Assembly: GCF_003334815.1 (NCBI RefSeq)
Contig: NZ_QOWO01000024.1
Length of the DNA: 64,000 nucleotides
Reading direction: 5' to 3' (one strand)
Source: Escherichia coli
GTDB lineage: Bacteria; Pseudomonadota; Gammaproteobacteria; Enterobacterales; Enterobacteriaceae
The position numbers and the translations under genes are program-made. Positions 1,463 to 14,006 of this stretch are shown one piece after another. Positions within the stretch are counted from its first letter, which is position 1. Each line of letters starts with the position of its first letter. The notes under the pieces were generated by a model. It was given only the letters and a program-made list of their open reading frames with translations. It did not search any database and was not told the origin of the DNA.

Positions 1463-2320
1463 ATGATTTATCCTGATGAAGCAATGCTTTACGCACCGGT
1501 TGAATGGCACGACTGCTCCGAAGGTTTCGAGGACATTCGTTATGAAAAATCCACCGACGGTATCGCAAAAATCACCATTAATCGTCCGCAGGTGCGCAAT
1601 GCCTTCCGTCCTCTGACGGTAAAAGAGATGATCCAGGCGCTGGCAGATGCGCGTTATGACGACAACATCGGCGTGATCATTCTGACTGGTGCAGGCGATA
1701 AAGCGTTCTGCTCCGGTGGTGACCAGAAAGTGCGTGGTGATTACGGCGGCTATAAAGATGATTCCGGCGTACATCACCTGAATGTGCTGGACTTCCAGCG
1801 TCAGATCCGTACCTGTCCGAAACCGGTTGTCGCGATGGTGGCTGGCTACTCCATCGGCGGCGGTCACGTTCTGCACATGATGTGCGACCTGACTATCGCG
1901 GCAGATAATGCCATCTTCGGTCAGACTGGCCCGAAAGTCGGTTCCTTCGACGGCGGCTGGGGCGCTTCCTACATGGCTCGCATCGTCGGGCAGAAAAAAG
2001 CGCGTGAAATCTGGTTCCTGTGCCGTCAGTACGACGCAAAACAGGCGCTGGATATGGGCCTTGTGAACACCGTGGTACCGCTGGCGGATCTGGAAAAAGA
2101 AACCGTCCGTTGGTGCCGCGAAATGCTGCAAAACAGCCCGATGGCGCTGCGCTGCCTGAAAGCTGCACTGAACGCCGACTGTGACGGGCAGGCGGGGCTG
2201 CAGGAGCTGGCGGGCAACGCCACCATGCTGTTCTACATGACGGAAGAAGGTCAGGAAGGTCGCAACGCCTTCAACCAGAAACGTCAGCCTGACTTCAGCA
2301 AATTCAAACGGAATCCGTAA
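1463..2320 (+). CDS. menB: 1,4-dihydroxy-2-naphthoyl-CoA synthase (crotonase fold)
   Basis: 285-aa ORF, crotonase/enoyl-CoA hydratase family; length and sequence fit MenB. Confidence 0.95.
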
Positions 2321-3282
2321 TGCGTAGCGCGCAGGTATACCGCTGGCAGATCCCCATGGACGCGGGGGTGGTTCTGCGCGACAGGCGGTTAAAAACCCGC
2401 GACGGGCTGTATGTTTGCCTGCGTGAAGGCGAGCGCGAAGGGTGGGGGGAGATCTCCCCACTGCCGGGCTTCAGTCAGGAAACCTGGGAAGAGGCGCAAA
2501 GTGTGCTGCTTGCCTGGGTAAATAACTGGCTGGCAGGCGATTGCGAGCTACCGCAGATGCCTTCCGTGGCCTTTGGCGTAAGCTGTGCATTGGCAGAACT
2601 GACAGATACGTTGCCGCAAGCAGCCAACTACCGTGCGGCACCGCTGTGTAATGGCGATCCGGACGATCTGATCCTCAAACTTGCAGATATGCCAGGCGAG
2701 AAAGTGGCGAAGGTCAAAGTGGGATTGTACGAAGCGGTGCGCGACGGCATGGTGGTGAATCTGTTGCTGGAGGCAATTCCGGATCTGCATTTGCGTCTTG
2801 ACGCAAATCGCGCCTGGACACCGCTGAAAGGTCAGCAGTTTGCCAAATACGTTAACCCGGATTATCGCGACCGCATCGCGTTTCTCGAAGAGCCGTGCAA
2901 AACCCGCGATGATTCGCGAGCGTTTGCCCGTGAAACCGGCATTGCCATTGCCTGGGATGAAAGCCTGCGCGAGCCGGATTTTGCCTTTGTGGCTGAAGAG
3001 GGCGTGCGCGCGGTAGTTATCAAACCCACGCTCACGGGCAGTCTGGAAAAAGTACGCGAGCAGGTACAGGCGGCGCACGCGCTGGGGCTGACGGCGGTGA
3101 TCAGTTCTTCCATTGAATCGAGCTTAGGCTTAACGCAACTGGCGCGGATTGCCGCCTGGTTAACGCCGGACACCATTCCAGGGCTGGACACGCTGGATCT
3201 GATGCAGGCGCAGCAGGTACGTCGCTGGCCGGGTAGCACGCTGCCTGTCGTGGAAGTTGATGCACTGGAGCGGTTGTTATGA
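2320..3282 (+). CDS. menC: o-succinylbenzoate synthase (enolase superfamily)
   Basis: 320-aa ORF; 1-nt start/stop overlap with menB (TAATG); position in men cluster. Confidence 0.93.
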
Positions 3283-4634
3283 TCTTCTCTGACTGGCCGT
3301 GGCGTCACTGGCGGCAAGTGCGGGGAGAAACCATCGCCTTACGTCTTAATGACGAGCAACTCAACTGGCGCGAGCTTTGTGCTCGCGTCGATGAATTAGC
3401 CTCCGGATTTGCGGTGCAGGGGGTGGTTGAGGGCAGCGGCGTGATGTTGCGGGCGTGGAATACGCCGCAAACGCTGCTCGCCTGGCTGGCGTTACTGCAA
3501 TGCGGGGCGCGGGTGTTGCCCGTGAACCCTCAGCTGCCGCAACCGTTGCTTGAAGAATTGCTGCCCAATCTGACGCTGCAATTTGCTCTGGTGCCGGATG
3601 GGGAAAACACGTTTCCGGCATTAACGTCGCTGCACATTCAGCTGGTTGAAGGCGCACATGCCGCTACGTGGCAGCCGACGCGTCTGTGCTCAATGACGTT
3701 GACCTCGGGTTCTACCGGTTTGCCGAAAGCCGCTGTCCATACTTATCAGGCCCATCTTGCCAGTGCGCAAGGTGTGTTATCGCTGATTCCGTTTGGCGAT
3801 CACGATGATTGGTTGCTCTCTTTACCGCTGTTTCACGTCTCCGGTCAGGGAATTATGTGGCGCTGGTTATACGCTGGTGCGCGGATGACGGTACGTGATA
3901 AACAGCCATTGGAGCAAATGCTGGCAGGCTGTACTCACGCTTCACTGGTGCCAACACAACTCTGGCGTTTGCTGGTTAACCGTAGTTCCGTTTCCCTGAA
4001 AGCGGTGTTACTTGGCGGCGCGGCTATCCCGGTCGAGTTGACGGAACAGGCGCGCGAGCAGGGGATTCGTTGCTTTTGCGGCTATGGTCTGACCGAGTTT
4101 GCCTCCACGGTGTGTGCGAAAGAAGCCGACGGCCTGGCAGACGTTGGTTCGCCGCTGCCGGGTCGGGAAGTGAAAATCGTTAATAATGAAGTGTGGCTGC
4201 GGGCTGCCAGTATGGCAGAAGGTTACTGGCGTAACGGGCAACTGGTTTCACTGGTTAATGACGAAGGCTGGTACGCTACGCGCGATCGCGGTGAGATGCA
4301 TAATGGCAAGCTGACCATTGTCGGACGTTTAGACAATCTATTCTTCAGTGGCGGAGAGGGTATTCAGCCGGAAGAAGTCGAGCGCGTAATTGCTGCACAT
4401 CCTGCGGTTTTGCAGGTGTTTATCGTCCCCGTTGCCGACAAGGAGTTTGGTCATCGACCGGTGGCGGTGATGGAGTATGACCACGAGAGCGTTGATCTTA
4501 GTGAATGGGTGAAAGATAAGCTGGCCCGTTTTCAACAACCGGTGCGCTGGCTAACTCTGCCGCCGGAGCTGAAAAACGGCGGTATTAAAATTTCACGTCA
4601 GGCGCTAAAAGAGTGGGTGCAACGTCAGCAATAA
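3279..4634 (+). CDS. menE: o-succinylbenzoate-CoA ligase (adenylate-forming enzyme)
   Basis: 451-aa ORF with AMP-binding motif TSGSTGLPK; ATGA overlap with menC. Confidence 0.93.
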
Positions 4635-4743
4635 TTAACCCTCCGTTTCACTTCTCATTTCTGCCATTCCATTGCCGTTGATAAAGAGTTTATCTGTTAA
4701 TCTGTAAATTGATGTGAAAACTCTTAGCAAACAGGATAATGCA

Positions 4744-5010
4744 ATGGAATGGCTGGTCAAAAAATCGTGCTGCAATAAACAAGATAACAGACATGTACTT
4801 ATGCTCTGCGATGCTGGCGGCGCGATAAAAATGATCGCCGAAGTGAAGAGTGACTTCGCCGTGAAAGTGGGGGATTTACTCTCGCCTTTGCAGAATGCGC
4901 TTTATTGTATTAATCGTGAAAAGCTGCATACGGTGAAAGTCCTCTCGGCAAGCAGTTATAGCCCCGATGAGTGGGAACGGCAGTGTAAAGTGGCAGGGAA
5001 AACTCAGTAA
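4744..5010 (+). CDS. pmrD: Signal transduction connector protein PmrD
   Basis: The ORF track gives 4714-5010 (98 aa); the internal ATG at 4744 yields the 88-aa protein beginning [15 protein letters not shown], which I recognise as PmrD; located between menE and the arn operon. Confidence 0.88.
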
Positions 5011-5390
5011 CGTTGTTTTGTCGTGGGCAGGAAAATCAGCATCAACCCGCTCATAATACAGGCTACTCCCAGTAGTGCTTTCAGCGAAAAAGTCCCTTCC
5101 CAGCCGGGAAGTACCATTGAAGCAATCCATACCAGCACATAACTCATACTGAGCAAGGCATAGGCTTTGCTTAGCGCAAGTTTATGAAGCGTTTTATACC
5201 AACAAAAAACGGAAAGCAGATAACCCAGCAGCCCGAGTAACAGTATCCGGGCATCCAGGCCAAAAGCTAACAGAGCCGCGATAAAATCCCATAAGTGCGT
5301 CATCGGCGGCAGATGACTCGCCGCAAAACCCAGGCTTAATTGCGCAACTGAGGCAATAATGACGCTGAATAATCCCCACATCAGGCCCAT
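5004..5390 (-). CDS. arnF: Undecaprenyl-phosphate-aminoarabinose flippase subunit ArnF
   Basis: 128-aa small multi-TM protein (start [10 protein letters not shown]) taken from an internal start of the 222-aa track ORF; last gene of the arn operon; start codon overlaps the arnE stop by 1 nt. Confidence 0.85.
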
Positions 5391-12452: not shown

Positions 12453-12469
12453 ATTAACTTAACCTTAAG
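12453..12469 (-). promoter_or_regulatory. PmrA/BasR box in the arnB promoter
   Basis: Minus strand reads CTTAAG-gttaa-GTTAAT (YTTAAK-N5-YTTAAK direct repeat), about 100 bp upstream of the arnB start, in the arnB/ais divergent intergenic region. Confidence 0.7.
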
Positions 12470-13728: not shown

Positions 13729-14006
13729 AGGGATATTCCTTATAAATAAAAAGAAACCATGAGAATACGGTAACTCACAAATATGTGAAAGTGACAGTAA
13801 TCTCTTTTGCGATGATAACTGTACTTATTATTATTTTTGTGTGTATCGATAAAGTGTGTTTATTTTTTCGGCATTTAATTATTTAAGAAGTATTTAGTTA
13901 CAATAAGTGACTAGATCCTTTTTTTCGCTCATTGAATCCTCTGTGCCAGGCAGTACAATCCCGCAGCTTTGGGAATTTTGATTAATTGCTTGTGGGAAAG
14001 GGGATA

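Follow-up and report, generated by a model that had tools for sequence, protein, structure and literature searches.

A probable PhoP box in the menE-pmrD spacer of Escherichia coli, aligned with the footprinted site of the Salmonella pmrD promoter

Introduction

Does the short spacer between menE and pmrD of Escherichia coli carry a binding site for PhoP and, if so, in which register does it lie with respect to the pmrD promoter? A PhoP box in the pmrD promoter of Salmonella enterica was reportedly described by Kato, Latifi and Groisman in 2003. Activation of pmrD by PhoP is the entry to the PhoPQ-PmrD-PmrAB connector pathway, which leads to the modification of lipid A with L-Ara4N and phosphoethanolamine and, through it, to polymyxin/colistin tolerance, and the correct placement of the box is useful for promoter mutagenesis, for reporter design and for the reading of natural promoter variants.

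That pmrD depends on PhoP for its expression in E. coli and Shigella is already known from the literature; this regulation and the Salmonella site are textbook matter and represent no new biology. According to PMC2565834, which refers to Winfield & Groisman 2004, the expression of E. coli pmrD in low Mg2+ depends on PhoP. Deletion of phoPQ lowers pmrD to 0.42-0.48 in Shigella (PMC5775216), a reporter for E. coli pmrD tracks PhoP (PMC13215669), and a PhoP box is marked in a figure of E. coli pmrD in bioRxiv 10.1101/2021.07.26.453917. There is also counter-evidence, as pmrD was down in one transcriptome of an mgrB deletion, where PhoP is up (PMC8355897), and a PhoPQ-independent induction of pmrD has been described (PMC13215669). 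An earlier note on the DNA analysed here had considered PhoP control of pmrD plausible and had flagged a weak PhoP-box-like direct repeat in the pmrD leader. The plausibility of this control, already backed by the reported PhoP dependence, is further supported by the box described below, which occupies the menE-pmrD spacer in a different register.

Sequences and scoring

The window is the whole 64-kb stretch of DNA that was analysed. PhoP sites were scored with a weight matrix built from 25 activating footprinted Salmonella boxes (Table 1, PMC3335776), with pmrD held out. The ortholog pmrD loci comprised divergent E. coli alleles, Escherichia sp., E. albertii, Citrobacter amalonaticus and S. 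enterica subsp. arizonae, diarizonae and enterica; 16 orthologs entered the matrix and linker comparison, and 14 distinct rows were used for column conservation. For the divergent patch at the menE end of the spacer, the window was compared with loci L001-L003, L005, L008 and L009-L012.

Gene context of the spacer

The DNA of the window is of the E. coli K-12 type. According to the ORF list, the genes around the spacer are menC (2320-3282), menE (3279-4634) and pmrD on the plus strand, followed by arnF, arnE, arnT and arnD on the minus strand. The 241-bp stretch over the site (4560-4800) shows 100% identity with E. coli K-12 and is found as a single copy, annotated menE / pmrD, in 5416 of the 5426 complete genomes of E. 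coli; in MG1655, pmrD corresponds to b2259 (2373272-2373538). This junction is also unusually polymorphic inside the species, and 684 genomes carry it at 90-95% and 436 at 80-90% identity. The features of the locus, observed and predicted, are as follows.

3279-4634, plus strand: coding sequence of menE (o-succinylbenzoate-CoA ligase), from the ORF list and the RefSeq annotation of identical E. coli records
4632-4634, plus strand: menE stop codon TAA, at the edge of the menE-pmrD spacer
4676-4681, plus strand: distal half-site CGTTGA of the probable PhoP box, aligned with TATTGC of the footprinted Salmonella box
4682-4686, plus strand: 5-nt spacer taaag of the probable PhoP box, the least conserved promoter segment
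4687-4692, plus strand: proximal half-site AGTTTA of the probable PhoP box, holding the GTTTA of the earlier note, which is invariant in the orthologs
4693-4704, plus strand: 12-nt linker tctgttaatctg between the box and the -10, which includes AATCTG and has a fixed length in the orthologs
4705-4710, plus strand: predicted -10 hexamer TAAATT, aligned with the Salmonella -10 TAACGT
4716, plus strand: predicted transcription start G, by homology only, aligned with G1474 of the Salmonella locus L015
4733-4736, plus strand: Shine-Dalgarno sequence AGGA, 7 nt ahead of the ATG at 4744, from the sequence
4744-5010, plus strand: coding sequence of pmrD (88 aa, PF11183), from the ORF list and the ortholog loci

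The interval 4635-4743 is precisely the menE-pmrD spacer, with about 110 bp, as the start codon of pmrD is the ATG at 4744, not 4745. Three ATGs, at 4739, 4744 and 4749, form a start-site array at 4739-4751, one in each frame, which is treated in bioRxiv 10.1101/2021.07.26.453917; there, translation of pmrD is said to begin at the second of them. The third ATG arises incidentally from the Glu-Trp codons GAATGG, and the array is not conserved as such, since the first ATG is missing in Salmonella and in two Citrobacter sequences. A 46-aa ORF on the minus strand (4635-4775) was treated as spurious, the sole ground being its antisense position over the promoter and the start of pmrD.

An Rfam search of 4300-5300 returned no RNA family at E <= 1. 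A scan for terminators from menE to pmrD found none, and a sigma-70 scan of the spacer revealed no stand-alone promoter on the plus strand. Because of these two results, read-through from the men operon is a possible source of pmrD mRNA independent of PhoP.

Register of the probable PhoP box

The string flagged by the earlier note, GTTTAT-ctgtt-AATCTG-TAAA, is present inside the spacer at 4688-4708 (GTTTAT at 4688-4693, ctgtt at 4694-4698, AATCTG at 4699-4704 and TAAA at 4705-4708). Its reading as a direct repeat did not hold, as GTTTAT and AATCTG have one of six bases in common, and so do AGTTTA and TAATCT when shifted to the consensus register. A PhoP box in this arrangement would occupy 4687-4704 as (A)GTTTA(T)-N5-(T)AATCT(G), GTTTA forming its upstream half-site. 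It benefits from the fact that GTTTA is a perfect half-site core; however, the pairing scores -4.9 and -5.0 bits with the PhoP matrix, a background level matched or exceeded by about 4% of the window positions. Furthermore, its second hexamer would adjoin the -10, which is incompatible with all five activating architectures of PMC3335776, and the homologous footprinted Salmonella box has GTTTA as its downstream half, so that the probability left to this register is negligible.

What stood of the earlier proposal is the presence of a box in the pmrD leader with GTTTA as a true half-site, and what changed is the partner, which is CGTTGA, 11 bp upstream, rather than AATCTG downstream. The tests that had been set with the proposal, a matrix score and a conserved hexamer repeat, came out negative for GTTTAT-N5-AATCTG and positive for CGTTGA-N5-AGTTTA. 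AATCTG belongs to the 12-nt linker, and the -10 hexamer TAAATT (4705-4710) opens with TAAA. Based on these comparisons, the pmrD promoter very probably has its PhoP box at 4676-4692, where CGTTGA-N5-AGTTTA forms an imperfect direct repeat 12 nt upstream of the weak -10 TAAATT.

With its flanking bases, the box reads cCGTTGA-taaag-AGTTTAt (4675-4693). Its two hexamers are identical at four of six positions and separated by 5 nt (11-bp register), thus forming a direct repeat. Compared with the consensus (T/G)GTTTA-N5-(T/G)GTTTA, 9 of 12 positions match, although such matches are common in the window: with up to three mismatches allowed, KGTTTA-N5-KGTTTA has 186 matches in the 64 kb, where shuffles give an expectation of 119, and is non-discriminating alone. 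Consensus searches allowing two mismatches miss pmrD because its box has three, and pmrD is absent among the 38 PhoP boxes predicted in Shigella by a search of this kind (PMC5775216).

With the 25-box matrix, from which pmrD was held out, CGTTGA-N5-AGTTTA reaches 13.42 bits and ranks third among 127,964 window positions. This score falls in the range of the training sites (9.8-22.4 bits), and the held-out Salmonella pmrD box itself scores 14.85 bits. By the same matrix, the runner-up within the spacer, both strands considered, has 7.5 bits. With a smaller matrix of 11 boxes (architecture I/II), the pmrD box ranks 63rd with 8.43 bits, and a site at 4632-4650 is slightly higher (8.92 bits); with a matrix of eight EMSA-verified Shigella boxes, it ranks 136th. 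These lower ranks on small matrices are consistent with a degenerate box of the submotif S2 type.

The second-best match of the spacer is a PhoP-like site in reverse orientation on the minus strand, AGTTTTCACATCAATTTAC (4704-4722), which covers the -10 and the start and could be thought of as a functional or repressing site, all the more as its 7.5 bits increase to 9.6 in E. albertii. Nevertheless, this score is well under those of all 25 training sites, the site is the best match in no ortholog, and its location over the -10 would repress rather than activate, which makes such a role very improbable.

One helical turn upstream of the distal half-site, the sequence CCATTCC (4664-4670) is well conserved from E. 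coli to Salmonella; taken as a third PhoP half-site, it has a low score (2.9-4.3 bits).

Orthology and conservation

As described in PMC3335776, the Salmonella pmrD box CTATTGCCGTTTTGTTTAT has a direct orientation, and 12 nt separate it from the downstream -10 TAACGT; the +1 follows after 5 nt more, and the leader has 27 nt. An exact copy of this published 19-mer lies at 1433-1451 of the S. enterica locus L015. In the MAFFT alignment, the E. coli box and -10 fall, one column to one and free of gaps, on those of the footprinted Salmonella pmrD site (box cTATTGCcgtttTGTTTAt, -10 TAACGT), and the gap-free region extends from about 30 nt upstream of the box to 12 nt downstream of the -10. The segments are paired as CGTTGA/TATTGC, taaag/cgttt, AGTTTA/TGTTTA and TAAATT/TAACGT (E. 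coli/Salmonella), with the 12-nt linkers falling together. The alignment with the Salmonella pmrD promoter, which the earlier note had recommended as a check, therefore sets the E. coli box on the footprinted one. An insertion in E. coli relative to Salmonella (CATTGCCGTT|GATAAAGA|GTTTAT), suggested by eye, was ruled out by the same alignment, in which the promoter is gap-free and the distal half-site is CGTTGA.

Among the 16 orthologs, the best matrix match on the plus strand is located at -69 or -68 from the ATG in 13, and the linker between the box and the -10 measures 12 nt in all of them. The proximal half-site has five of six columns invariant (GTTTA, in all 14 distinct rows), and its first position, the degenerate one of the consensus, is A, G or T. 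In the distal half-site, T3 and G5 are invariant, and T4 is kept in 13 of the 14 rows. None of the five columns of the 5-nt spacer is invariant, and their mean major-allele frequency (0.54) is the lowest among the promoter segments. At the level of sequence, the shape of this conservation is what one would expect from a dimeric response-regulator site rather than from uniform drift. One genome of Escherichia sp. counts against the box, as its distal half is CGTCGA and its site scores 7.7 bits.

A different explanation is that E. coli has no direct PhoP site here, and that the conserved TTG...GTTTA...TAAATT serves as a basal promoter or binds some other regulator, PhoP acting indirectly. The weak match to the consensus, the -35-like TTGATA at 4678-4683 and the PhoPQ-independent induction on record (PMC13215669) all lend themselves to this explanation. 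However, the distance of 21 bp between TTGATA and the -10 is too long, the PhoP-footprinted site of Salmonella is the base-for-base ortholog of this one, and a conservation pattern with a freely varying spacer fits a dimeric response-regulator box. The absence of a direct site is thus considered improbable, and a direct PhoP box at 4676-4692 is preferred.

Comparison with known PhoP promoters

The Salmonella pmrD box was assigned to architecture I and submotif S2 (Zwir et al. 2012, PMC3335776). The E. coli promoter is like it in its position between menE and pmrD, its register, its direct orientation and the 12 nt to the -10, as well as in having a weak -10 (TAAATT vs. TAACGT), no usable -35 and a short leader (about 28 vs. 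27 nt). In both, too, the distal half-site is degenerate and the proximal one contains GTTTA. Besides these similarities, there are differences: the distal half-site is CGTTGA instead of TATTGC, the first base of the proximal half-site is A instead of T, the spacers taaag and cgttt are unrelated, and the K-12-type window lacks the upstream PmrA box that Salmonella possesses (ATTAAT-N5-GTTAAT).

Regarding the canonical boxes of mgtA, phoP, yrbL and slyB in E. coli and Salmonella, the pmrD box resembles them as a direct repeat of hexamers with a 5-nt spacer, overlapping the -35, as would suit class II activation. These boxes have 0-2 mismatches and 16-22 bits, whereas that of E. coli pmrD has three mismatches and 13.4 bits.

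Promoter architecture and proposed mechanism

By definition, architecture I has one directly oriented box, which overlaps the -35 and stands 11-12 nt upstream of the -10; its members are mgtA, phoP, yrbL, slyB and pmrD, together with orgB, which are predicted class II promoters (PMC3335776). The pmrD promoter of the window corresponds to this definition, with a single box in direct orientation 12 nt from TAAATT. No usable -35 is found at 16-18 bp from this -10, the hexamer at 17 bp being TAAAGA, and the TTGATA within the distal half-site (4678-4683) is -35-like but stands 21 bp away.

In the proposed mechanism, PhoQ would sense low Mg2+, acid pH or antimicrobial peptides, leading to phosphorylated PhoP, and a phospho-PhoP dimer would occupy both half-sites (4676-4692) head to tail. 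Since there is neither a usable -35 nor a sigma-70 promoter on the plus strand, we infer that the bound phospho-PhoP would stand in for the missing -35 contact (class II activation), recruiting sigma-70 RNA polymerase to TAAATT. Transcription from around 4716 would then produce a leader of about 28 nt and the 88-aa PmrD, a connector that would protect phospho-PmrA and thereby feed into the adjacent arn operon, responsible for the L-Ara4N modification of lipid A.

The binding of PhoP to E. coli pmrD DNA, the -10 and the start site are thus predicted features, the start by homology only. A search of Cappable-seq supplements for a measured pmrD start (MG1655 coordinates 23735xx; pmrD) gave no match, and a literature search for PhoP ChIP data of E. 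coli turned up only a Salmonella RpoD/H-NS paper.

Promoter haplotypes within E. coli

A 47-mer covering the box, the linker and the -10 (4666-4712) was searched as an exact match, and the K-12 type was found in 4190 and a second type in 1122 of the 5426 complete E. coli genomes. The K-12 haplotype (about 77%) has the spacer taaag and the proximal half-site AGTTTA, with 13.4 bits; the second haplotype (about 20-21%) has taata and GGTTTA, with 17.0 bits, being closer to the PhoP consensus. The two haplotypes are highly divergent in a patch (4624-4660) that takes in the 3' end of menE and roughly the first 25 bp of the spacer.

A PmrA-box-like repeat, ATTAAG-N5-ATTA(G/A)T, lies over the menE stop in the second haplotype of E. 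coli as well as in E. albertii and Citrobacter, some 45 bp upstream of the PhoP box. It reads ATTAAG-aaatc-ATTAGT, or ATTAAG-aaaac-ATTAAT in Citrobacter, and is located at about -114 to -98 from the pmrD ATG. When the PmrA (BasR) box CTTAAG-N5-XTTAAT was searched with up to three mismatches, no match was found in 4624-4749 of the K-12-type window. As a positive control, the same pattern recovered a perfect box, CTTAAGGTTAAGTTAAT, on the minus strand at 12453-12469, upstream of an arnB-like ORF (start 12387, minus strand), as expected for the PmrA-dependent arn promoter.

In the Salmonella promoter, about 35 bp separate the PhoP box from the PmrA box ATTAAT-N5-GTTAAT upstream of it, consistent with the distance of about 38 bp given in PMC2681069. 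In that article, PmrA sites are listed for pmrD, ugd and yrbL of Salmonella and for yrbL of E. coli, not for E. coli pmrD.

From these sequence differences, it might tentatively be proposed, with considerable doubt, that E. coli is dimorphic in the wiring of the pmrD promoter, the K-12 type having a weaker PhoP box without a PmrA box and the second type, whose form recurs in E. albertii and Citrobacter, a stronger one with a PmrA-box-like repeat. If this repeat were functional, a negative feedback of PmrA on pmrD, similar to that of Salmonella, would be present in the second haplotype only. Such a dimorphism, if true, could contribute to the strain-dependent and conflicting reports on PmrD linking PhoPQ to PmrAB in E. 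coli.

Elsewhere in the window, the best match to the PhoP matrix (15.4 bits) is a site at 13879-13898 with the perfect direct repeat TATTTA-agaag-TATTTA, in the spacer upstream of an ORF starting at about 14008 on the plus strand. This site also fits the PmrA pattern with two mismatches (TTTAAGAAGTATTTAGT), and a -10-like hexamer, TACAAT, lies just 2 nt downstream of it.
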